Source: a virus
Virus record (IMG/VR): IMGVR_UViG_3300025117_000036
Span: 57,860-121,859 of that record
Strand: one strand, 5' to 3'
DNA: 64,000 nt
The notes beneath the pieces were generated by a model that did no database searches, was not told the origin of the DNA, and saw nothing but the letters and a program-made list of their open reading frames with translations. Positions 2,104-56,266 of this stretch are shown here, piece after piece. The number at the start of each line of letters is the position of its first letter. Position 1 is the stretch's first letter. A program made the translations under genes and the position numbers.

Positions 2104-2379
2104 ATGAATAAAAATAATTTTTTATACGTTGTTACAATGTATCGTTATGCAAATAAAGAAGAACATTCCTATGTTCTAGGTGTATACGATAACCCCAATG
2201 AAGCAATCAAGCATGGAAAAGTAGAAGAATCTTGGCGAGGAAACAAATATACTTGTGAGGTTCTTCGTCTTAAATTAAATGATACTACCAATGATTTCGA
2301 TGAAATTATTCTTTCGGTTGAGCGAAATAAAGCCGATGATAGTATTGCAGAAATGAACTTCTTTGATTGGTGTCCATAA
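2104..2379 (+). CDS. hypothetical phage protein
   Basis: 91-aa ORF with AGGA RBS, operonic. Confidence 0.7.
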   Translation: MNKNNFLYVVTMYRYANKEEHSYVLGVYDNPNEAIKHGKVEESWRGNKYTCEVLRLKLNDTTNDFDEIILSVERNKADDSIAEMNFFDWCP

Positions 2380-2380
2380 A

Positions 2381-4444
2381 ATGAAACGTATTTATCGTAA
2401 TCTAGACTTCGATGATGTTTTAATCAAACCTATTCCTTCTCAGGTAAATTCTAGAGAAGAAGTAGATATTTCTGTAAAATTATCTGATAATTTTACTTTA
2501 CAATTTCCTCTAATTGCATCACCTATGCGAGGTATCGTAGATGCTAATTTTGCATCTGCATTATCTGACTTGGGAGGCATTGCAATTCTTCATCGTTTTT
2601 ATAATTCAAAAGATGAATTATATTCTGAATCTAATACTTTACTTCAAACAAATAAAAATTTCGGTATGTCAATTGGATTAAACGATAATGATTATATAAG
2701 CATCTTAGATCGCTATCAACCCAAAATTTTAGTAGTAGACGTTGCAAATGGCTATACTGAATCATTATTGTGCTTCTGTGAAGAAATAAAAAAATATATT
2801 ATCTCTAATAATCTAAACACCCTACTTTGTTCAGGTAATGTGTGTACTGTGCAAGGAGTAGAGAATTTAAGAAATTCAGGGGTGGACATTGTTAGATTTG
2901 GGATTGGGTGTTTTACTAAAGGAACCAGAATTCTCTTATCTAACGGAACTTATAAAAACATAGAAGATATGATCATTGGAGATAGAATTATCAATAAAAA
3001 TGGAAATCCTGCAACCGTTAAGAATGTAATATATAATGGAAAAAAGAACGTTAGAAAAATAAAAACAAATCATTTTTATAAAGAAACATTTGTTACCCCC
3101 AATCACAAATATTTATTGGCAAATATAAATCAAGAAAAACTCGCAAGTAACGGTTATTTATCGGCAATTAAAGATATTGCCTGGAAAGAAATTTGCAATG
3201 CAGATAATACTACCGCATTATTTCCTGCCAAAATTAATTTTGAATTAAAAGATACGTTTTTAATTAATCTTTATAAAAGAAGCGGCGGAAATTGGAGAAC
3301 CGGATATAATTACGCATTAGATATAAATCTAACGCCCTCCTATGAATTGGGTTATATTTTTGGATCGTTCTTAGGAGATGGAAATAGCAATACCCCCTAT
3401 TATAAAAAATCCCATAGGGGCTTTATTAAATGGTATTTTGGATATTCTAAAGATAGAGCAATAAAAAAACTTCCTCTTTGTGTTGAAAAAATATTTAATA
3501 AAAAATTAAAAGTTAATAATACTAAAAATACAATAATTTATACATTTAATTATAAACCTTTTGCCGATTTTTTAAAAGAATTTGGCAGTAAAGAAAATAA
3601 ACAATTACCATCATCTTTACTTGTAAATAATCCTGAATATTTAAAAGGTATTTATGACGGATTAATTGATTCAGATGGAAATATAGAAAAAAAATCAGAT
3701 GTAATAACATTTAGCAATACTTCAATATATCTTGGAGAATTATTTTCTATCTTGTCATTTTTAATCAATGGGTCGTTACCCGTTGCATATGAAAGAAAAA
3801 TAACAACGGGATTATCAAATATGAATTTAGAAAATTGTAAAGATTCCTTTGCATATAAAATATTAAAACAGCCAAATAGGAGAATTTATAATAATAAATA
3901 TATATTAGTAAAAATTTTAAAAAATGAAACAGAAAACAATGATATATTTGAAGATGTATATGACTTAGAAATAGACGACGATACTCATAGCTTTATTGCA
4001 AATAATTGTATTGTTCATAATTCTGGAGGTCTATGTACCACTCGTCTTGTTACTGGAATTGGAAATCCAAGTATTTCGGCTTTACAAGAAACATCTCAAA
4101 TAAATGATGTAATTATCTGTATGGATGGAGGAATAAATTCGAGCGGCAACTTTGTAAAAGCAATTGTGGCTGGTGCAGATTTATGCATGGCAGGATCGAT
4201 TTTTGGAAAAACTTTCGAAAGCCCTAATGATGGTAGTATATTCGGAATGGCGAGTCGTAAATTAAATGAAATGATGTATACTCGAATTAAATCAATTGAA
4301 GGAATTGAAAAAACCGTCAAGAAAGAATATTCTCTTGAACAATTTGTAGAAGAATTTTCATGGGGAATTAAAAGTGCCGCAACCTATTTGAATGCAAGAA
4401 ATCTATATGAAATTTGGTTAAATGGAACATTCATTTTAAAATAA
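2381..4444 (+). CDS. guaC: GMP reductase / IMPDH-family enzyme containing an intein
   Basis: LDFDDVLIKP, ASPM, GGIAILHRF, VDVANG, GNV, GIG|SGGLCTTR catalytic loop, DGGI; no CBS domain; ATG at 2381 preferred; guaC versus guaB is not certain. Confidence 0.8.
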   Translation: MKRIYRNLDFDDVLIKPIPSQVNSREEVDISVKLSDNFTLQFPLIASPMRGIVDANFASALSDLGGIAILHRFYNSKDELYSESNTLLQTNKNFGMSIGLNDNDYISILDRYQPKILVVDVANGYTESLLCFCEEIKKYIISNNLNTLLCSGNVCTVQGVENLRNSGVDIVRFGIGCFTKGTRILLSNGTYKNIEDMIIGDRIINKNGNPATVKNVIYNGKKNVRKIKTNHFYKETFVTPNHKYLLANINQEKLASNGYLSAIKDIAWKEICNADNTTALFPAKINFELKDTFLINLYKRSGGNWRTGYNYALDINLTPSYELGYIFGSFLGDGNSNTPYYKKSHRGFIKWYFGYSKDRAIKKLPLCVEKIFNKKLKVNNTKNTIIYTFNYKPFADFLKEFGSKENKQLPSSLLVNNPEYLKGIYDGLIDSDGNIEKKSDVITFSNTSIYLGELFSILSFLINGSLPVAYERKITTGLSNMNLENCKDSFAYKILKQPNRRIYNNKYILVKILKNETENNDIFEDVYDLEIDDDTHSFIANNCIVHNSGGLCTTRLVTGIGNPSISALQETSQINDVIICMDGGINSSGNFVKAIVAGADLCMAGSIFGKTFESPNDGSIFGMASRKLNEMMYTRIKSIEGIEKTVKKEYSLEQFVEEFSWGIKSAATYLNARNLYEIWLNGTFILK
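2909..4021 (+). mobile_element. intein with LAGLIDADG homing endonuclease (371 aa)
   Basis: N-terminal CFTKGTRILL, block B VTPNHKY, LAGLIDADG motifs GSFLGDG and GLIDSDG, C-terminal VYDLEI...HSFIANNCIVHN followed by +1 Ser. Confidence 0.95.
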
Positions 4445-15515: not shown

Positions 15516-18500
15516 TTATGTTTGAAATAGTTGCGCTCCTCGTGTATAACCACGTTTTGTTAAACTATTGTTTAATTGTTTGATAACCTCATTAGCCACG
15601 ACTCTAACATCACCTAGAACATTTTCATCTAAATTGCCTTCAACATTAATTAAATTTTGAATTACAATATCTCCAACGGAACTTATGTTTCCCCCGATTA
15701 TATTTGTAGTTAAAGAATTTAATAACGAAGACAATCTATCTCCTCGTAAGAATGTATCGGCTCTAAACCCACCCGTAACCATTTCTGGTGAGAAACCATA
15801 TTTTCTACCACCAGTAACCATTTCAGGAGAACTAGGATCATACCTAAATCCACCAGTAACCATCTCTGGCGAAAAGCCTTGACCTTTTCTACCACCAGTA
15901 ACCATTTCAGGAGAATCTATAGGATCGGCTCTAAACCCACCTGTAACCATCTCAGGAGTAAAACCCTCTCGTCCATTACCTCTAAACCCACCAGTTACCA
16001 TTTCAGGAGTAAAACTTTCTCCTTCTGCCCTAAATCCACCAGTAACCATCTCAGGAGTAAAACCACGATTGGCTTTTCCAAAAGTCCCATTATCATTACC
16101 ACTATCACCAGGAACATATGGTTTGCCACTACTGAAATCGCTTTTTCCAAGAATAACATCTAAAAGATTGTTATACTCTTCCAATGCTCTTACAGCCTCA
16201 TTCCACGCACGAACAATATCTTCTTCAATGCCGGAACCATAAACTTCATTCCATGCTACCAATTCTTCATATAAATCTGGCCCCATTTGCGCCATTCGTT
16301 CTAATGCGGCTTGACCAATCAAGCCAGATTTACTTAAAAATTCATCGATTGCATCAATAGTGTCTTGCAAAACATCATATTCTTGATCTAATAAGTCAAA
16401 TTGGGTTTGTAATAAGGTCTTTTGGTTTTCGATATATTGTTTATATAATTCATATTCTTCGTCAAGACGATTTTCCGTTAATTCTATTTCGTGTTCTCTT
16501 TGAGTTTCATCTAAATCAGAAAGTTCTTCTTCTAGTTCTTCCCGTAATTCCAATTGACGCTTTTTTGATTCCGCTGAATCGTCTAATGCTAGTATAGCCA
16601 ATTCTTTTTGAAGTTTTTGAATAGATTTATTTTTATCTGCAATTTCTTCTTGATAATCTAATTCATCTTCTTGTGTTTGAAGAATTTCTTTTCGAGCATC
16701 GATTATCTTTTCATAATCTTCTAACTGTTTATCTAAAGCGTCTTGCTGTTGCTTTAGTATTTCTTGTTCTTGACGGAGAGCATCTTGCTTTTCACGAATC
16801 AATTCTTTTTCAGCTTCTTTTTCTTGCCGAATAAGATTAATAATCATCTGGTAGAGGTTTGCGCCGGAATATGTAGGTTCTTCTTTGGCTTTTTCAGCCC
16901 CACCTCCACCACCGCCACCTCCACCACCGCCACTTTTAGGCGGCTCAGAAGGTGTACCTTGATGCGCATTTGCCCAATCATAACCCATTGAACCATATGC
17001 AATGCCTTCATCGTCTACTGTTACATGAAAACGAATATAATAATCACCAGCCGCCGCCAATGCCGCTAATCTAACTCTATCTAAAACAGCAATGGCTTCC
17101 TCACCCGCGCCTGACATAGCCAATGTAACGAATTCGGTCATGCCTTGAACAACGGCAGAAGTATTTGCATCAATAAGGCCCCAGGCTGTTCCAATATCGT
17201 CCATCATTTTAAAAGCCGCTTGCTGTATTGCTAAAGCTTGAGCGGGGTGAAGACGACTTAAATCCATTTGCATAACACGTTGTAGCATCATTCCATAAAT
17301 AATGCGTCGTGTTGCTAATTCATGTTCAGCGGCAAGTGCATCAACCGCCCTAGAGGTATTGTTAAATTCTTCTTTTAATTTAATTAACTCAGCCCTTTGT
17401 TCATCAGAAAAAGGCTGTGCTTCAACCCTCATAATTTGTACTCTTAATTCCGCTAATTTATCAACAAGTTCATTATGACTTTCTATATAACTATCACGAG
17501 CATCGGTCATACTTGTATCTAAAGAAGCCGCAAGATCACTAAAAAGACCAGCAATTTCATTGCGCGCATCTTCGGTAGCAGGAATTAAATCATTTTTAAT
17601 CATCTCGACCCATGCACCAACAAGGTCTGCTTGTATATACAATTCAGCACTATAAGGATTAGCTTCAGAAACACCTCTAGCTTGCAAAGCAACTAAATCT
17701 GCTTGTGCTTGAATATACGCCCTTACTGCTTCTTCGTTTAGTACTAATTGATCTCCTTCAAGTACAAGAAAATCAGTATAATCCTTATTGACAGCAGATA
17801 ATGCCGCAATGTCATCAGCAGATAATTGTTGTCCACTTTGCGATTTGCTTAATAAATCTAAATAAACTTTTAATTCAGTATTTAAATTTGTAATTATTGT
17901 AGATAAATCGCCAAACCCCCCCGCAATTTGAGGGGCAATAGTTAATGGTTTTGGAAGATTAACGTTACCGCCAACATCTTTCCAATCATCAACCTCTGAT
18001 TTCATTGCTCCCCTTCTACTTACACCAACATCTTGCCAGCCAACAGAAATATCAGCTAATACATTAACATAATGTTCATATTCAATTATAAGAGACTTAG
18101 CAGCAGAAATTTCATTATTTAAAGTCTCATATTCTTTACCCATTAATCCGGTAATATCTTTATGAGTCTCTAAATATTTACCTAGTTGAGTTAATTGTTC
18201 TTCGGGAGTGCCATATAAATCAACTCTTTGCCACGCGGGGCCAGCCCCACTCATCGTTTTTGCTTCTAGGAATTTTTTTTGTTCTTCATAGGCGCGTCTA
18301 TTCTTATTAATGAACTCTATTTCTTCAAATTTTGCTTTTTCTTTAAGCCATTCGATATTTTCATCAATCGCTTGACTATTCCTATCAATTGCGTCTGAAT
18401 ATAGTGTAATGCCCTCAGTTAACCCACCATATTTAGTATTTACAATTGTTTGTATATCAAGCAATCTAATTAAATCATCTGAATTTTTATTTTGTTTGTT

Positions 18501-21500
18501 TGCTAATGCTTCATATTCTTTGGCTAAACTAGAAAGTTCGTTTTTATTATCGTCTGTTTGACGTTTTAGTTTTTCAAAATTAGTATAGGTTTCAACCGCT
18601 GAAGTATTCAATCTATTAAATAAAGCGATTAAACCAACAATAGCTAGACCTAAAGTCATTCCTCCTAAAGAAATAGACAACGCATTTACTGCCGTACTAG
18701 TCATAGTGACAGTACCAGTTAAGCTAATAAACGCGGTAATTAATGTATATATTGTACTAGTTAATCCAGGTATAACCAAAGCAAGTTTAGTTATCATGAA
18801 AGTAGCTAAAGCTACTAATGCTATATTAAGAACCCCCAAATTATCTGCAACTTCTAATAACACAATACCAAACTCAAGAAATTTTTTTACCAATTCTTCA
18901 GTAATGGTATCTTGAACTACTTTTTCCCAAGTCGCAGTAAATTTATTAGTGGTTGCCTCTAGACCTTCCATATATATACCGAATCTTTGGGCGGCAAGTC
19001 CAGAGGATTCAGTTTGAATTTTTTGTGCTTCTAATACTTGGTTGTAATTCTCCATAAGTGCGATGAAATTTTCACGTTGCCGAACTTTTCTGTTGCTTTC
19101 GCACCGTGAATATGCTACTAACCGTTATTCTTCAACGGCGATTAAGTATTTCTACTTAATTCTGCAATTTCAATATGTTATAGTTGCAGAGCAGACCATA
19201 TCTTTTTCTTATATAAAATAAGAAAGATGACGCGGACATTTATATCACTATAAATATCCAATTGGTCGTTACGGATTTTCAAAAATTATAAAAACTGACT
19301 AAAAATAGTGTGTAGTTTAGTCAAATCTTTTCGATAAATTTCAATTAATTTTATATTATTATCTTTGCAAATACTTCTTTTTTCTTCCATTCGTTTATAA
19401 TAAACAGGTTTTTCAGGCATTCCAAAAAATTCTATAAATACACTTTTATTTATTACCCAATCAACTCTTTTCAAACCACATCTTTTATCATTACAATGTA
19501 GGTTATATAATTCTTCTTTTTTATATTCGATACTATTATTTATTAAATAATTTGTAATAGATAATTCAGATTTTGAAAAGCATAAATCGTTATTTAAAGA
19601 ATAATAAATATTAGATTCTCCATATAGTGAGGAATTTGCATCTAATTGTGCTAACTCACAAGCATTTCTGTAACCCCCAAAACGCCTTTCATATGTTTTC
19701 ATAGATGGAAGTCCAAATGCAGCAAGTTCTGATCCATAAGGAGTTCTCCCTAACTTATTGCCTAATTCTTGTAATTGCTGTATCATAATATTTTCATCAT
19801 ACCATTTTACGCTCTTTTCTTTACTCTTGTGCAATCCAAATTTTAACGCCATCGTTCGTATACTTTCAGGAGTTCTATTAAAAAAATATTTTTCACACAA
19901 ATATTTATTTGTATAATCAGGATAGTATTTTTTTAATAATGCTATATTTTCATCAGTCCAATCTTGATTTATTTTAAATCCTAATTTACTTATCTTAGTG
20001 CGAATTGCAGATAGTGTTCTATTTAATTTTTTAGCAATATCAGCATAAGACATCAAATTATAATTAGAAATTATAAAGTCAATTTCTTTAGACGTATAAT
20101 CTCTATTTTTTTCAACAATTATTCCTAATTCGGAAGCTTTATGTCGTATTGAATCAATGTCATTATTTTCTAGTTTTTCCATCAATAAAACATAATTTCC
20201 ATAGGGATATAACTCCTTTAATATTTCAAGTCTATTTTCAGTCCATTGATATCTGCCTATGCCTAGTTCTGTAACCAATTTATAAATAGCATTTTTATTC
20301 CTGTTTATATGTTTGGCTATTTCATCAATGGAAATTTTTCCATAGTTATTTATTAAATATTCTTTATCTTGCGTTGTAAATACTTTTATTTTTCCCACGA
20401 TTATTTCTCCAGAAATATTTGCTACACATCAAATATTTCTAATAAATTATTGTTTATAATTTTTGAATCTTTCCTCGGAGTTGTCTACTTCTAGAGTTTC
20501 CCCGATATGGTCATCTTCTGAAATTTTTATTTTACCACACATTTATGCATGATAAAAAATGCAAATTTCCATATGTCACCATATGTTCTGGCATTCTATT
20601 TTTACCAGCAATAGCATTTGCAACAGCACTTTGTTCTACCTCATTCATGTTCTCCCACTTACCAGCAATTTCGTCTAAAACATCGCCCATTGGACGGAAT
20701 GAGGTTTCTGAATCACGTAGTTTAATGTTTACTAAGGAGAGTGCTTTTTCTACATCGTTGATATTTGTAACTTCATCTTCGAATAATTTACCTAATTTTA
20801 TTGCTTGGAGTCGTGCGAATATGGTTTTGAAGGATTCCAATTTTGTTATCGCCAAGCTTTTTATCTTGACTTCTTATGCTTTTCCATTGCATAAGTTCGG
20901 CGTACATTTTTATCCACAAGGGATAACGGATACTCTTGGAGAGATTATATTTATTCACTCTCTACGCTCTACGGTATCAAAAAACCTTTCGCTATTTTTT
21001 TGATTACCTCGGTATTTTCCATTTTTATTATTTGGAGGAATTCACCGATTTTACCCATTCATAATTTTATGCATTACTGTATAAAACGGCAATTAATCTT
21101 ACCAATGCTATCCGCACTTTTTCTAGTGGTTGCCGAAACGATTGACACGTAACTAGCCAGCTCGTCAAAGCTGACTCCGGCTTGCTGTGCAGAATTTGCA
21201 GACCTTTGCATAGCACTACTAATTTCTTCCACTGACGTCGCATACTGATTGTCTAATGCCCAATCTGTTACTTCGAGTTCGACAAAACTCTTATGACCTC
21301 AATAGAGGCGTTTAGGAATTTCTTCCTAAATCAGCAATTTTAATACCTCACATAGTATTTGCTGTTCCGACTGTATATTCACCCTCATAAGAGGGGGATG
21401 ACTTCAGGATACTTGTTACCAAATACCCCCCGCAGTCTGTAGAGGTTCTTTATTTTATATTTAATGAATATATTCTTCAAAAATAAACAAAAGATTACTT

Positions 21501-23990
21501 AAATCTTTTTTATATAAATCCAAAAGTGAAACGTTATTATTTTTACAAATTTCCATTTTATTTTCTGATTTATCGGCATACCCCTGATCACGCTCCAATC
21601 CAAAATATTCTACAACTAATCCATCTTGTAAAACCCAATCGGCCCTATATTTTCTGTCAAAAAACGGAATAAATTCAGAATATAAAACTTCTTTTGTATA
21701 TGAAATATTATTATCAATAAAAAAATCAGTAATATCTTTTTCTGGAATAGAATAACATAAATCTCCATTTTTAGAAAAGCATCTTTTTCCCATACTGGAA
21801 TCCGAAAATATATCTACATTGGCTAAAACTAAGGCATTTGTATAACTTCCAAAACGATCATAATAAGTGTCAACAGAAGGGAGTCGCCTATCTTTTTGAA
21901 CATCGTCTATGGACGGAGTCCTTCCTAATTCTTCTTCCAATATCTTAAGTGATTGTAATAAATCATCATCTGAAAAATCCATCAATATTTTTCTTTGACG
22001 AAATGGTTCTATTTCCAATATTCTACAGCGTCCTTCAACAAAAATAGCTGATCTTTTTAATTTTCTACCCATTTCTATTGATGTCATATTCACATAATTT
22101 TGTAAAATAAATCTATCTTCTTCATCCGTAGCAAATTTTACAGCAGTAAACTTTTCACCATTGGATTTTATTCTATTTAAACCCATTTCGCGAGCCTTTT
22201 TGCCAATTGCCTTCCAGCTTTTGTTTAATGTTTCGCAAATAAAAATCTTATTTCCGGTTGGAAAATTATCAATCAAAAATTGTTTATCTTCTTCTGTCCA
22301 CCAAAATCCAGATTTTACATTTAGTAAATTAGCCATTCCATGAATACAAGCTTGAGTTCTTCCTAAATCTTTTGCTATTTCTTTATAGGTTTTATGTAAA
22401 GAATTTTTCTTTATATATTCTTTTTCTTCTTCAGAAAAATATCTTGATCCATCCGATTTTATATTTCTTTTTAAACCTAATTCACTTGCCTTACTAGCAA
22501 GAGAACCTTTACTTCTTTTAAATCGTTCAATTAATTTTTCCATTGGCTCTGTTGGATATAATTCTATAAATAAATTTAAATCTTCTTCGCTCCAAACATT
22601 TTTCATATCAATTTTTTATTACTTCCTTATCCATTATTTTATTATCTTATTATTTCATTAAATATAAAACAAAGTCTTCCTTCGGTCTGACCTTTGTGAA
22701 TAGGCTTTAACCGATATAGTCATCTTCTAATCGGCAATATTACAAAAAATTATATCAGTAAATATAATAATTTACAATACCGCCAACCCATGTGTTACCA
22801 CATGTTCTGGCAAAACTTACCAGCTTTGACACAACATCTTGTGTATCTTCCGCTTCCAACTTGAAACCATTAATAATTGCAGTTAAAGCTTCTGTAGATT
22901 CTGCCGCTTCCATATTTCCAAGTTTAGACATCATCATGGTAGAACGCATTAACTCGCTAATTTCTTCTACTGTTTTACCTTGCCTCGCCCACTCCAGGGA
23001 ACCCCGACTAATCTGTAGCGTTGTAGACCCTAGCTCTAAAGCCAACTGATTATATTTACTTGCCAACTGACCAATTTTTTGACTACTCTCCCCCGTAACA
23101 ATTTGAGTATTAGTTAATTCTTTATTCAAATCTCGAATATACTCAATACCATCTCGAATCTTTCTCATAGTACCATAAATTGCCATCGTGCCTACGCCCC
23201 ATACGGCAATTTTCTTAATACCAACATCTAACATCGAAATAAAGTTAAATCCTGATTTATTAGCACTTCTCATTTTCTCGGCGGCTTGGGCAACTGAATT
23301 ACCTAAATTACCAAACGCTATTCTAACATCCTCTAACGTTGCCTTCCCTCTTTTAAATTGATCAAAAATAGCATTATAATCTTTCAACGCAGATTGTATA
23401 TCTGTCTTATTAAAAACGTCTTTATTTTTTATTTTCAATCTTTCTAACGCTTGCTCTTGCCTTTTAATAGCAATTTCTTTTTGACGATCTAATTTTTCAT
23501 TTTGAGCATAAGCCTCACGCAACATTCTTTCTTTTCTCAGATTATATTCTTGATCCATCTGATAAGCAGAACGATACATTTGTTCTTGTTGCTTTGCAAA
23601 TTTTTCAGCTTCTTTTCTTGCTTGATCAATATTTTGAGCGGTACTACGAGATGCTAATTCCCACTTCCCTCCACTTTCGGCAATTTTCAAATACGCTTGT
23701 TGTACCAAATTCAATTTGTCACGATATTGAACGATTGCCCCTGTCACTTCTCCCGATGGGCTTTCAAAAATCTTAACTTTTCCAAATGCTTGCACATCGC
23801 CAAAAAGTTTTTCTACTTCTCTTTTTGCACTTTGAATAGCTTCATGATTTACTCTATCATCAAACAGTACAATTTTTCTTCCCGCCGCTAATTGATTTAA
23901 TGTGGCTTGTACTTTTGAAAACTGTTGTTGAAGTTGTGCTTGATCTACAATCGCTTCAACTATAACTTGATATTTATTACTAGGTGGCAT
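15516..23990 (-). CDS. tape measure protein, four exons: complement(join(15516..19085,20604..20837,21101..21260,22819..23990)), 1711 aa
   Basis: TMP core motifs run continuously across the junctions (VSKLV|ALDNQYATS; KSADSIG|ESFKTIFARL; NAIAG|VRQRENFIALMENY); exon lengths 1172+160+234+3570 = 5136 nt in frame; lies upstream of Dit. Confidence 0.92.
15762..16064 (-). repeat. seven in-frame (S/T)PEMVTGG(FR/RK) peptide repeats near the TMP C-terminus
   Basis: Seen directly in the translation; synonymous codons and linkers vary between copies. Confidence 0.95.
19086..20603 (-). mobile_element. group I intron 3 in the TMP gene (IA-like, carries an endonuclease ORF)
   Basis: P1 CUGGU/GCCAG with U-G at the 5' splice site; P3 GAUGAC/GUCAUC; P4 AUCGGGG/CUCCGAG; R CCGUAACGACCA; S AAGAUAUGGUC; extra stem between P7 and P3. 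Confidence 0.9.
19286..20398 (-). CDS. intron-encoded putative homing endonuclease
   Basis: Tandem Myb/HTH-like W/F-T-x-E repeats, LGRTP...LPS..TY..RFG repeat, C-terminal nuclease-like RVDWVI...FIEFFG. Confidence 0.8.
   Translation of the reverse strand: MGKIKVFTTQDKEYLINNYGKISIDEIAKHINRNKNAIYKLVTELGIGRYQWTENRLEILKELYPYGNYVLLMEKLENNDIDSIRHKASELGIIVEKNRDYTSKEIDFIISNYNLMSYADIAKKLNRTLSAIRTKISKLGFKINQDWTDENIALLKKYYPDYTNKYLCEKYFFNRTPESIRTMALKFGLHKSKEKSVKWYDENIMIQQLQELGNKLGRTPYGSELAAFGLPSMKTYERRFGGYRNACELAQLDANSSLYGESNIYYSLNNDLCFSKSELSITNYLINNSIEYKKEELYNLHCNDKRCGLKRVDWVINKSVFIEFFGMPEKPVYYKRMEEKRSICKDNNIKLIEIYRKDLTKLHTIFSQFL
20838..21100 (-). mobile_element. group I intron 2 in the TMP gene (ORF-less, 263 nt)
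   Basis: 5' splice site UUGGU| with guide GCCG; P3 AAUGGGUA/UAUCCGUU; P4 AUCGGU/ACCGAG; P7 GCGUA/UACGC; ends ...ACAAAAUUG|GAA. Confidence 0.88.
21261..22818 (-). mobile_element. group I intron 1 in the TMP gene (carries an endonuclease ORF)
   Basis: P1 CUGGU/GCCAG; P3 GAUGAC/GUCAUC; R CUACAGACUG; S AAUAUACAGUC; ends UAACAGAUUG|G, rebuilding a GTG Val codon. Confidence 0.92.
21461..22606 (-). CDS. intron-encoded putative homing endonuclease
   Basis: Same architecture as 19286-20398: WSEED/WTEED repeats, LGRTPS...LPSVDTYYDRFG, C-terminal RADWVL...VVEYFG. Confidence 0.8.
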   Translation of the reverse strand: MKNVWSEEDLNLFIELYPTEPMEKLIERFKRSKGSLASKASELGLKRNIKSDGSRYFSEEEKEYIKKNSLHKTYKEIAKDLGRTQACIHGMANLLNVKSGFWWTEEDKQFLIDNFPTGNKIFICETLNKSWKAIGKKAREMGLNRIKSNGEKFTAVKFATDEEDRFILQNYVNMTSIEMGRKLKRSAIFVEGRCRILEIEPFRQRKILMDFSDDDLLQSLKILEEELGRTPSIDDVQKDRRLPSVDTYYDRFGSYTNALVLANVDIFSDSSMGKRCFSKNGDLCYSIPEKDITDFFIDNNISYTKEVLYSEFIPFFDRKYRADWVLQDGLVVEYFGLERDQGYADKSENKMEICKNNNVSLLDLYKKDLSNLLFIFEEYIH

Positions 23991-27918: not shown

Positions 27919-28776
27919 CTATGTTTCTATTTGCATCTCCCACAATTTCTCAATTTCCTCTTTGGAAATATCGTTTAATTTTGCTTTCCACCCGTAAAAT
28001 TCTATTGCGGCTTCATTGTAGGCTAGAGCAGCTTCGAGTTCTGTTGGGAAGTAACCAATGTGTAATTTCTTTCTATTATAAGTCAATTGCGACCCCCATT
28101 TATTTTTACATTTCTGATAATAAACACCAATATATTTACTTGTAGAAACCATATTCTTCTTGCGTCCTAATTGAATGCGTGATATTTTATCAGTTATTTC
28201 TTTATTAAGAGATAATCCAAATCGACAATTCTTTTCACCCTTTCTTGATTCTGATATTCGTCGCCTAGTTTCTTCTGAAGCCGGTTCTCTTTTATTTCTA
28301 GAAATACGCATCTTATGAAGGGTATTTTCAGTATGTTTTTTTCCAAACCAAACACTGTTTTTTCCTCCATTAGCCATTGACAATTTTTGTTTAGTTTCTT
28401 CTGATTTCGGCTTTCCCTTATTTATATCAGATAACTTTTTTCTTGTTTCTACCGATGGGTCTAAAAGGCCATCACCCCCTCTTGTGAGATTATACCCTTC
28501 ACCATCATCTCGATAAGAATTGTAATAAGAAATCCAATAAATTTCCATTAATGGCAAGTTTTCATTAGAACATTCTTGAATTATCCAATATTTAAAAATA
28601 TCTTTGCCATATTTATTATATATATTTTGGAGATATCCATTATCGTGTCTATTCAATCTTAATTCACTGTGATGCTTTTTCCATCTTCTAAATATGTTTT
28701 TGGCATAACCTATGTACTTTTTTCCATTTAATATATTCTCTATACAATATATTCCACTTATTATATTCTTTTTCAT
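27919..28776 (-). CDS. GIY-YIG homing endonuclease with NUMOD3 repeats and AP2-like domain
   Basis: SGIYCIEN...KYIG, GYNLTRGG, SEETKQKLS repeats, SKYIGV...HIGYFPTELEAALAYNEAA. Confidence 0.95.
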   Translation of the reverse strand: MKKNIISGIYCIENILNGKKYIGYAKNIFRRWKKHHSELRLNRHDNGYLQNIYNKYGKDIFKYWIIQECSNENLPLMEIYWISYYNSYRDDGEGYNLTRGGDGLLDPSVETRKKLSDINKGKPKSEETKQKLSMANGGKNSVWFGKKHTENTLHKMRISRNKREPASEETRRRISESRKGEKNCRFGLSLNKEITDKISRIQLGRKKNMVSTSKYIGVYYQKCKNKWGSQLTYNRKKLHIGYFPTELEAALAYNEAAIEFYGWKAKLNDISKEEIEKLWEMQIET

Positions 28777-52659: not shown

Positions 52660-53439
52660 TTACTCACATAAATATTTTTTTCTATTTAAATTTAAACGAT
52701 AACGTTTTTTATCTCTTGTTTTTCTATGAGTATTTTTTTCTAATTTTTGGCATTCTATACACATGTTTTGACTTCTATAAACTTTAGAAAATTCTTTACC
52801 GCAAATCTTACAATATGGAGGATAAAAAGAAATAATATTAGATATATCTTTAACTATTATTTTTGGTTCAGAATCATCATCGGCAGTAGTAAATGTTAGA
52901 ACAAAAGAATCTGTTAGTTTTATATTATTGATAAATCCTTTTTTATAAAGAATATAAAAAATATCTTCGTTTCTTTTCTTAACGGTGTGGGCGAGACGAT
53001 GAATTGTATTAGCATTTTCTCCAATATAATATTCTTTAGATTTACTTTTTGAATCCATAAGTCTAAAATATTTACCTAATACCAACATTGTAAATAATAT
53101 TTTTTCATACCGATAATTATTTAAACTCCGAATACTTTCTAGTTCACGTTCAGTAATCGGAACATCTTTAGGAACTCGTAAAGGATATTCTCTTGATCTA
53201 GCAATAGCTTTTTCTATTTTTAGGGAAGAAAGAATAGAAGAAAATTCGCCTGCATGTTTTTCACAAAATTTACATAATTCTTTTCTTATTTCACTTTTCT
53301 TTTTACCAAAATAACGATAATATTTTGCTAAAATAATTAAATCTGACATAGACATAAATCTAGAAAAACCATTTTTTATTAATTTTTCAGCATATTCTAG
53401 CTCATTCAATATTCTCATAAAAATAATAATCATCCTCAT
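52660..53439 (-). CDS. conserved protein coupled to the RNA polymerase gene, C-terminal Zn finger
   Basis: ILNELEYAE, ILAKYYR, EKILFTMLVLGK, CKIC...CIEC. Confidence 0.7.
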   Translation of the reverse strand: MRMIIIFMRILNELEYAEKLIKNGFSRFMSMSDLIILAKYYRYFGKKKSEIRKELCKFCEKHAGEFSSILSSLKIEKAIARSREYPLRVPKDVPITERELESIRSLNNYRYEKILFTMLVLGKYFRLMDSKSKSKEYYIGENANTIHRLAHTVKKRNEDIFYILYKKGFINNIKLTDSFVLTFTTADDDSEPKIIVKDISNIISFYPPYCKICGKEFSKVYRSQNMCIECQKLEKNTHRKTRDKKRYRLNLNRKKYLCE

Positions 53440-56266
53440 TGTCTAAATTATAATTATAATCAGAATCATTTTTCATTACTTCTATTTCAGTCATTGAATA
53501 ACTACTATATAAATAGTTTATGTTACCGTTATCATCTAATACAGGAATAAAGCATTTTTCTTGTTTATTTTTTGCAATATTTTCAATTATTTCATTGCTA
53601 AATATTTGCCATAAAAAACTCTTATTGTCGCCAGGAAAAGCTACATAGCAAATATCTACTACTAAATTTACTAATTCGGCCCCATTTGATGATATTTCAT
53701 ATGCTTTTTGACGAATGAATTTATTGAATTGATCAATTGTTTTAAAATAGGCGGCAACATCTGTTTGAGAAGTGTTCCCTCCAGCATAAGCATTAGAAAA
53801 TTTTCTTTTTTCCTTTTTATAAATACGATAGAGAGCATCTAATTTTTTGTATTTTTCTTCATCGAATGAAATACTTGAGTCTTTTAATATTTGAATGTTT
53901 TCGTCTGTTATGGGAATAATAGTGGATATTTTTAATTGTTTAAATTGTTCTTCCATATACCAAGCAATTTTATTCATTAAACAATTAGTTTCCAAGAGAG
54001 GATTATATCTTTGATGTTCGAAAATAAACTTACATTCTTCTACATCTGTAGTAATTCCGGCATTTTCTAAAACTTCATTTATTTCTTTATTAAAACGCAT
54101 ATGAGAATCTTTAGAATATGCTTTTTTAAATTTTATATAATTTCGATTATAGTGACTATATACCCATCTCATGAAATAAGGACGTTTATTAATTACAATG
54201 CGATTTAAAAATTTTAAATTTTCTTTTTCTTCATCTTCCATTTCTTCTGATATTTTTTTCCAGCGAGTCCAATGTATCGGAAATGGTTTAATAATCAGTC
54301 CTTTTGTTGCATCTATCGTAGAGCCTTGTTCTTTTCGAAAACATTTAAGTCGATTGATTAATTCTGTATATTCAGGAGAATCTTTTTCAAAGTCAGGTAA
54401 CATAGCAAATGCAGTAGTTGCAACATTAGTTACAAATCCTACCCTATTATTAAATCCGTTTAAATCAGCTTTATATAATTCTTCTTCAATAATTTCTTGT
54501 TTTGGAGATTTCTTACTATCATAATAAATGGGCAATCCACCAGGAAGATTGGTTATAATTTCGGAATTATTGGTGATACATACTATATCACCATCAAAAT
54601 CTGAACCAGATTGATATAGACAATCATTTCCAAAAACATTATAAACAATGCAATTATTTAAATATTTATACCATTCTTTTATTTTAGAATTTTCTTTTAA
54701 GTTGATAGGATTAATTTCGCTTTTCCAGGTTAAAGGAGCGCGCATAGCAACTAATTTATTTTCTTTTTGATCTAGCCAATAGCGATTATAATGTTCATCT
54801 CTATTTAGTAATCCTTTTAGTGGAAGATTAAATAAATTTTCCATAAAAGCATAAGGATCACTTACTGCCATTGTATAAAAACCATGAATTAAAAGATTAC
54901 CAATATAAGATTCTTTTATTTTTTTATTTAAACTATGAATAAGATAATTTTTTATATAAGGATCGTGAATTAATTCGTTATTGAGAATTAATGCTTTTGT
55001 AACAACATCTTGAATTTTATTAAATACATTATCTAAATTATCTAAATCATTTGTATTTACATTAACATTTGCATTATTATATTTCTGATTAGAAAGTTTT
55101 CCTAATAAGTATAATAATGTATATTCAATTTTGTTTTTTATAATATTACTAAAAAAGTCTAAAGTTGGTTGACATAATTTCTTAATCGTATCGTTATCTA
55201 AATCTAAAACTTGAACAAATTGATAATTCAAAAATGTATAAGGCGTTTCAGTTTTTGGAGTAACCCGGCTAACTCCCCAAGTTAAATTATTTTTTTTGCA
55301 ATTAGCAACATAATGATCCAGTGAAAAAAATGCTTCCCATAATTTAAATTGACTTTCAGTTAGAATAATGTCTGCATTTCGAAGGTTATACTTATTTCCC
55401 CAAATATCAGTAACAAAATGTTGTTCTGCTATTTCTTCAGCAAAACGATGGAAATCAAAAACACAAACCATCCCTTTAATAAAATTGGCTCGAATAATAA
55501 ATGCAGATGGAATATAATTTAAACCTAAATCATCAGCCCATTGTTTTGCAAATTTAGGAGATATTAATCCTTGCCCATCCCATAAATTAAATTCTATTTC
55601 TTTTTCGCAAGGAATGACAATATCATCGCCATCTTCTATTTCTTCAATATAATCTACCATTTCTGTTCTTTTTATTTTTAAGTCGGGTACAACACAGAAA
55701 TAAGGAGTAGATACCTGTAATGTAGCACTAGCATTTAAACCAAAATAAGCATTAAATTTAGCAGGAGAAATTAGAATTGAATTTCGATCATTATTTAATA
55801 TTTCTTTTAATGGTTTTTCATATTCTTCTGAAATCCATAATGAATTATTGCGCCTTGCCTGTCCTGCTCCACACAATAAACGTACAAATCTTATTCCATT
55901 AATATAAAATCCATTTTGACCAAGATATTCATAATGTCTTAAATCACTTACAGAAACAGAAATAATTTCAGGAACAAATAAAAGAGAATCAATTTGATTT
56001 TCTATTTGTAACAATGTCTCTGAATTTTCAGAAGAATGTTTTTTCCGTTTTATTTTTCTTTTTTCTAAGAGTAGATCATCAATTTTTTCTTGAGAAAAAG
56101 AAATATTTTTAAGTTGTCTTAGAGAACGAAATACTTGTGAATCTCCAATAGAAACAATTTCTCCTGATTTACGGGCATCGTCAATAGTCAGAGTAAGATT
56201 ATATTTTGAATTTTTTAGTCGTGATGTAGATATTTTAAAAATATAAAATTGCTGTAGCTTTTTCAA
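53402..56266 (-). CDS. yonO: YonO-like single-subunit (RdRP-like, two-barrel) DNA-dependent RNA polymerase
   Basis: DGQGLISP, AFIIR, KGMV, SQFK, LNYQFVQVL, RAP, GSDFDGD catalytic motif, IDATKG. Confidence 0.9.
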   Translation of the reverse strand: MKKLQQFYIFKISTSRLKNSKYNLTLTIDDARKSGEIVSIGDSQVFRSLRQLKNISFSQEKIDDLLLEKRKIKRKKHSSENSETLLQIENQIDSLLFVPEIISVSVSDLRHYEYLGQNGFYINGIRFVRLLCGAGQARRNNSLWISEEYEKPLKEILNNDRNSILISPAKFNAYFGLNASATLQVSTPYFCVVPDLKIKRTEMVDYIEEIEDGDDIVIPCEKEIEFNLWDGQGLISPKFAKQWADDLGLNYIPSAFIIRANFIKGMVCVFDFHRFAEEIAEQHFVTDIWGNKYNLRNADIILTESQFKLWEAFFSLDHYVANCKKNNLTWGVSRVTPKTETPYTFLNYQFVQVLDLDNDTIKKLCQPTLDFFSNIIKNKIEYTLLYLLGKLSNQKYNNANVNVNTNDLDNLDNVFNKIQDVVTKALILNNELIHDPYIKNYLIHSLNKKIKESYIGNLLIHGFYTMAVSDPYAFMENLFNLPLKGLLNRDEHYNRYWLDQKENKLVAMRAPLTWKSEINPINLKENSKIKEWYKYLNNCIVYNVFGNDCLYQSGSDFDGDIVCITNNSEIITNLPGGLPIYYDSKKSPKQEIIEEELYKADLNGFNNRVGFVTNVATTAFAMLPDFEKDSPEYTELINRLKCFRKEQGSTIDATKGLIIKPFPIHWTRWKKISEEMEDEEKENLKFLNRIVINKRPYFMRWVYSHYNRNYIKFKKAYSKDSHMRFNKEINEVLENAGITTDVEECKFIFEHQRYNPLLETNCLMNKIAWYMEEQFKQLKISTIIPITDENIQILKDSSISFDEEKYKKLDALYRIYKKEKRKFSNAYAGGNTSQTDVAAYFKTIDQFNKFIRQKAYEISSNGAELVNLVVDICYVAFPGDNKSFLWQIFSNEIIENIAKNKQEKCFIPVLDDNGNINYLYSSYSMTEIEVMKNDSDYNYNLDNEDDYYFYENIE

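Follow-up and report, generated by a model that had tools for sequence, protein, structure and literature searches.

Three group I-type introns split a phage tape measure gene, the third of them ending in A

The tape measure protein (TMP) gene of an environmental phage is split into four exons by three elements with a group I fold, and we consider it very probable, by group I chemistry, that all three splice out to leave a single 1711-aa TMP, the third joining taking place after a terminal A. The window, meaning the whole 64,000-nt stretch of DNA that was analysed, comes from one contig of 121,859 nt (31% G+C) carrying terminase, portal, tail, integrase-like and RdRP-family (PF05183) genes, and the DNA is found in soil and groundwater metagenomes; the phage presumably resembles SPbeta-like phages. 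Introns 1, 2 and 3, all on the minus strand of the window, are referred to as introns A, B and C, and the exons that they separate are as follows.

22819..23990, minus strand: TMP exon 1, 1172 nt, ending CUG GU (phase 2); PF10145 positions 1-81 and PHROG tape measure matches
21101..21260, minus strand: TMP exon 2, 160 nt, without an ORF call; PF10145 positions 85-135
20604..20837, minus strand: TMP exon 3, 234 nt, 78 codons, phase 0 on its 5' and 3' sides; PF10145 positions 137-201
15516..19085, minus strand: TMP exon 4, 3570 nt, beginning GUU CGG CAA (V-R-Q)

An earlier note on this DNA had read three ORF fragments and the uncalled 160-nt exon as one interrupted frame, and joining the four exons indeed gives 5136 nt encoding 1711 aa plus a stop. 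The tape measure motifs are continuous across the joins, as it had stated, with PF10145 positions running in order over exons 1, 2 and 3. Alignment to intronless TMP homologs, which it had put forward as a check, is collinear and free of gaps against the best of them: the spliced region matches P0003 at 63% over 365 aa and P0001 at 65% over 357 aa, each with 0 gaps. In the comparison with 30 homologs, conserved motifs continue across all three junctions (KLV/ALDN, SIG/ESFKT and IAG/VRQRENF); four of these 30 break off at or close to junction 2 or 3, probably because they too are split genes. Identity as a tape measure gene follows from the PF10145 domain in the long ORF and from the DUF6558 and YomG-like distal tail genes that come next. 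The insertion sites are as clustered as the claimed figure of about 400 nt, junctions 1 and 3 being 394 nt apart in the mature message. Full-length TMP requires the removal of all three inserts, a retained intron bringing in a stop 64 nt (A), 27 nt (B) or 72 nt (C) into the insert. Any retained intron stops translation within 72 nt, and tails would therefore depend on three splicing events.

Near the C-terminus, exon 4 also encodes a peptide containing PEMVTGG that recurs about eight times in degenerate form (15763-16064, minus strand; units of 42-51 nt), and it has a poly-Gly run at 16900-16933. Among other genes, the product of 53402-56266 (minus strand) is a 954-aa protein that matches the RdRP family PF05183 at E 8e-21; it is probably a phage RNA polymerase of the single-subunit type, presumably YonO-like. 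An IMPDH/GMP reductase-family gene at 2363-4444 (plus strand) contains an intein (PF14890, PF05203), and a GIY-YIG/NUMOD3/AP2 endonuclease gene lies among structural genes at 27919-28776 (minus strand), with no intron profile match nearby. A promoter scan returned 29 sites against 25.1 in shuffles, which is no excess. Nine MAG loci were matched, and their unrelated labels point to no one host.

The three inserts and the ORFs that two of them contain are laid out as follows.

21261..22818, minus strand: intron A, 1558 nt, group I (IA-like), terminal G; IGS GCCAG 22811-22807; P3 22724-22719 with 21402-21397; P4 22714-22710 with 22686-22682; P7 21439-21433 with 21373-21368
20838..21100, minus strand: intron B, 263 nt, ORF-less group I of a subfamily other than that of A and C, terminal G; IGS 21090-21086; P3 21058-21052 with 20932-20926; P4 21048-21044 with 21013-21009; P7 20969-20963 with 20904-20899
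19086..20603, minus strand: intron C, 1518 nt, group I (IA-like), terminal A at 19086 (omega-A); P10/IGS 20596-20588; P3 20515-20510 with 19231-19226; P4 20505-20500 with 20480-20475; P7 19269-19263 with 19198-19193, G-C binding pair intact
21461..22606, minus strand: intron A ORF, 381 aa, in the P6 loop; it has Myb/HTH-like repeats, an HNH_repeat match (PF18780) and acidic residues that are invariant in its C-terminal domain
19286..20398, minus strand: intron C ORF, 370 aa, in the P6 loop

Reading the boundaries bears out the earlier description of them: the exon before each of the three introns ends in GGU, and each 5' splice site carries a U-G P1 pair (CUGGU/GCCAG in A and C, UGGU/GCCG in B). 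P3, P4 and P7 cores are likewise present in all three introns. The guanosine-binding G-C pair of P7 sits beside a bulged A or C in introns A, C(A)GACUG/CAGUCG, and C, A(C)GACCA/UGGUCU, and is found in intron B as G(A)GCGUA/UACGCC. Between P7 and P3 the A/C-type introns have one hairpin, and we tentatively label them IA-like on general subgroup criteria. The group I covariance search that the earlier note had suggested came back blank, Rfam giving no group I match (RF00028) when the window was searched at the gathering score, nor when 18500-23500 was searched at E<=5; this model is incomplete for phage introns, according to the available text of PMC11878797, and the fold was therefore tested by covariation among relatives.

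A profile built from intronless TMPs served to map the breaks in relatives. Of the 19 A/C-type introns, 16 have a P3 that pairs fully with its own partner, and among 208 cross pairs in which the 5' strand differs, four pair fully; the three misses (L043, L082, L108) look like wrong script anchors and are still counted as misses. P7 gives 17/19 for own partners and 62/254 across introns, and P1 also pairs better with its own partner than across the same 19, with compensatory changes in L043, L082, L108, L109 and L188. For P10, four of four pairs form in intron C and three of four in intron A, and the family mean is 3.5 for own against 2.3 for cross partners, weak intron B being left unscored. 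Placed on seven ORF-less relatives, the group I structure has 91.8% of its cells paired, with P4, P5 and P6 at 93-100%, 34 of 56 pairs changed on two sides and none of 500 shuffles as high; it was hand-drawn from the same alignment, and the score is therefore biased towards the structure. A sequence-only profile of these seven relatives, with no window sequence inside, was run against the 121,859-nt genome, where its only strong matches were to the two halves of intron A and of intron C, at E 6e-35 to 4e-14, with intron B at E 0.03.

The intron A site is also occupied in L108 and that of intron C in other phages (the 522 set). A search of 50,697 phage records with the 3' core of intron A found nothing. 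Viral contigs, scanned twice by pattern, gave five and nine loci; beyond the known set they added only L208, in another gene, and left the set of introns with a placed terminus unchanged. That element (L208:2201-2510) is an A/C-family intron that lacks an ORF and interrupts a gene other than the TMP. A related intron at L105:6735-7041 has a C-A pair in place of U-G at its 5' splice site.

Intron B has matches in 28 of the 50,697 phage records, and its P3 and P7 show compensatory changes, judged by eye, against six phage elements; its P1 and P10 are weak. Its site is also occupied in L188. The TMP gene of Arcanobacterium phage TPWB06 (PQ358086.1) contains an insert (L189:5920-6172) with 72% identity to intron B across 67% of its length. 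This insert is unannotated and splits a gene recorded as a hypothetical protein plus a TMP, but it is the single insert seen there, in another phage and at another site. In phage vB-SscS-F1 (MW589261.1; L217), an intron-B-like element, unannotated as an intron, splits the terminase gene.

If these elements act as other group I introns do, each IGS (GCC...) would pair with the exon-final GGU to set the U-G pair at the 5' splice site, and free guanosine, bound at the intact P7 G-C pair, would cut there. The freed exon would then attack after the last intron base, aligned by P10, and in intron C that base would be an A.

In the U-G register at its 5' site, intron C obliges exon 4 to begin GUU (Val) and makes A 19086 the last intron base, a feature absent from the earlier note. 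Introns A and B end in G (omega-G); intron C departs from this canonical terminus. Fourteen distinct introns occupy the intron C site, ten ending in G and four in A (the window, L009, L031 and L106), a count made without L105 (resolved to 530+2), the duplicates L006, L024-L028, L032 and L034, later repeats, and the breaks in L083, L126, L131, L141 and the first of L023, which are not placed to the base. Contigs of runs X7 and X11 have the same terminal A, and no difference at this base is listed for a diverged contig of X9. The L009 intron, 76% identical overall to that of the window, keeps its A, and it has its first 60 nt in common with the L031 intron, the 3' end regions of the two being different. 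The last intron of L106 also ends in A: the exon after it begins ACC, with P10 altered accordingly, and none of the collinear joins gives a terminal G. P10 of intron C (exon GUUC with intron GAAU) lies in the same register as in the G-ending sisters. The ORFs of the four omega-A introns group together at no more than 83/84 support, and the core tree fits one or two omega-A origins. We think it likely that A-ending phage introns form a stable lineage whose sisters at the same site end in G. The Coxiella 23S intron Cbu.L1917 is said to be omega-A as well.

DNA alleles without the introns also bear on this junction. In contigs from two of the four runs compared (X9 and X12), intron C is exactly absent (1522 nt skipped with 4 letters between, hence 1518) and so is intron B (290 skipped, 27 between, hence 263); one 2095-nt DNA contig keeps intron A and lacks B. 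These contigs are DNA alleles of related strains from the same habitat, as distinct from spliced RNA, and they read Gly-Val at the intron C join.

The terminal A could be avoided if intron C ended in G and its splice sites lay one base downstream (GGUA, G 19085), giving Gly-Ile-Arg. Such a join is as good for the protein, the profile scoring 68.7 against 68.9 for the GGU join; of 26 homologs, nine have Ile here and 13 have Val, and the spacing of six bases from P9.0 to the end occurs in G-ending sisters too. It would, however, place A-U where U-G is expected at the 5' splice site, whereas the GGU register fits all ten G-ending sisters at this site; L106 has an A with no G available, and the intronless same-habitat alleles read Val. 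We regard the shifted join as unlikely.

A further reading accepts the A and takes intron C to be crippled by it, or to slip to the next G, leaving the gene defective or reliant on intron-free co-infecting relatives. Omega-G is near universal, intron-free alleles occur in the same runs, and use of the exon's first G as the intron end with a normal 5' site shifts the frame and truncates the protein at residue 540. Against this, L009 and L106 have kept omega-A with TMP exons open and ORFs intact, and the hexacoral mitochondrial ND5-717, a group I intron ending in A, ligates its exons perfectly without the G, according to the available text of PMC6545197. We hold a crippled intron to be very improbable and favour intron C as an omega-A variant of group I, a kind for which the same text provides precedent (PMC6545197). 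Unlike ND5-717 as described there, intron C interrupts a protein gene of a phage, contains an ORF, has G-ending sisters at the identical site and is followed by an exon whose first base is G.

Both intron ORFs are intact, lie between the P6 strands and match PF18780 above its cut-off. That of intron C is 28% identical to that of intron A and 70% to that of L009, and residues E278, D313 and E323 of the C-terminal domain are invariant in all 14 aligned relatives. Atlas returned DUF559/Vsr-like matches at 0.85-0.87, below its bar, and a PDB search with an intron ORF matched the repeat region only. By their sequence, the two ORFs are probable homing endonucleases, and DUF559/Vsr-like nucleases are only a lead as to their family. 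The three introns are best pictured as selfish elements that have accumulated within the 130 best-conserved codons of an essential gene, where the two ORFs would spread their introns into the intron-free alleles present in the same habitat and ORF-less intron B would be a passenger.

The earlier note had gone on to suggest that skipping of exon 3 could shorten the tail, and of this the arithmetic stands: exon 3 is 234 nt, a multiple of three in phase 0 at its 5' and 3' junctions, and among exon skips only its loss stays in frame, giving a 1633-aa product. The tail-length function found no support, the block being kept in homologs. Exon 3 makes up the last third of the PF10145 domain and spans 77-84 aa in all 24 full-length close homologs, the two most distant matches having 73 and 64 aa and four truncated homologs being set aside. 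Were alternative splicing to set tail length, some of the transcripts would lack exon 3 and the ruler made from them would be about 78 residues shorter. The IGS of intron C can also pair with the 3' end of exon 2 (-4.9 kcal/mol, against -6.9 at its own site), which would open the distal-site route described in the available part of PMC10136302, and exon skipping is reported for Twort orf142 and phage SIOphi in the available accounts (PMC10136302, PMC11878797). Yet the P3 strands of introns B and C are mismatched, and a Twort-like joint ribozyme is therefore not favoured. The best-matched pair is A and C, which have the same IGS, exon end and P3, but their skip is out of frame with a stop at residue 409. 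The skipped exons in these accounts are 23 and 34 nt long, against 234 nt here, and close alleles lack intron B. Some skipped RNA is plausible by analogy with Twort and SIOphi, whereas splicing as a setter of tail length has only a slender chance of being right, and we give no better prospects to an extended form, in which exon 2 as a distal site drops exon 3 and the terminal A limits the full-length ruler, so that splicing tunes the virion. If true, phage tail length would be set by ribozyme alternative splicing. Under the reading that we prefer, a single 1711-aa TMP, inclusion of exon 3 would be the productive path and skipping mostly noise.

That the inserts are nuclease cassettes or assembly errors breaking the gene, as the blank Rfam result might suggest, has been largely refuted and is negligibly probable: the P3/P7 pseudoknot covaries, removal is exact and in frame, exact intronless alleles exist, the same sites are used in other phages, and one contig from X2 (possibly the source sample) spans 18981-21739 with no difference.

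Split TMP genes are widespread among the relatives examined. In a sample picked by similarity to these TMPs and hence non-random, 189 loci were examined; the 167 that extend across the region form 102 distinct clusters by a rough 90% rule; 28 of the 102 are split, with one break in 20, two in five and three in three, leaving 74 without a break. On closer inspection, the TMP genes of L106 (3960-6570) and L108 (5490-8300) have four group I-type introns each, with exons down to about 12 and 18 codons, and the break counts are therefore lower bounds. In our own numbering, intron sites in the TMP901 domain lie near codons 335, 391, 393, 402, 429, 440, 444, 447, 461, 522 and 531, and the domain is an intron hot spot among these large environmental phages. 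The idea that such a layout is very unusual finds no support, given these 28 split clusters, two relatives with four introns, and the TMP and Twort cases in the available published text (PMC2504315, PMC10136302, PMC11878797).

As far as the available text of the sources goes, TMP introns, a three-intron late gene with exon skipping, and omega-A are each already in print. Bacillus cereus-group prophages have group I introns at three TMP sites, TMP-IVS1, IVS2 and IVS3a/b (PMC2504315, available text). By description they too are group I introns in a phage TMP gene, assigned there to subgroup IA, and several prophages have two; the same text describes no single gene with all three and no A-ending intron, and concerns another TMP lineage (PMC2504315). 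Staphylococcus phage Twort orf142 is, like the present gene, a single late structural gene with three group I introns, and it supplies the precedent for exon skipping (PMC10136302 and PMC11878797, in their available parts). There, near-identical IA2 introns flank a 23-nt exon, whereas here introns 2 and 3, of different subfamilies, flank 234 nt. No three-intron TMP gene was found in the literature searched, which took in few subscription journals; PMC3984707 contributed nothing further to the comparison.

The main lesson is one of annotation, as split TMPs escape gene callers. TMP introns are missed by gene callers and by Rfam, and TMP length, together with the tail length inferred from it, is therefore undercalled. 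Because A-ending and G-ending introns occupy one identical site and share their P1, P10 and G-binding pair, they form a natural comparison set, with which exon ligation without omega-G would be directly testable in vitro.
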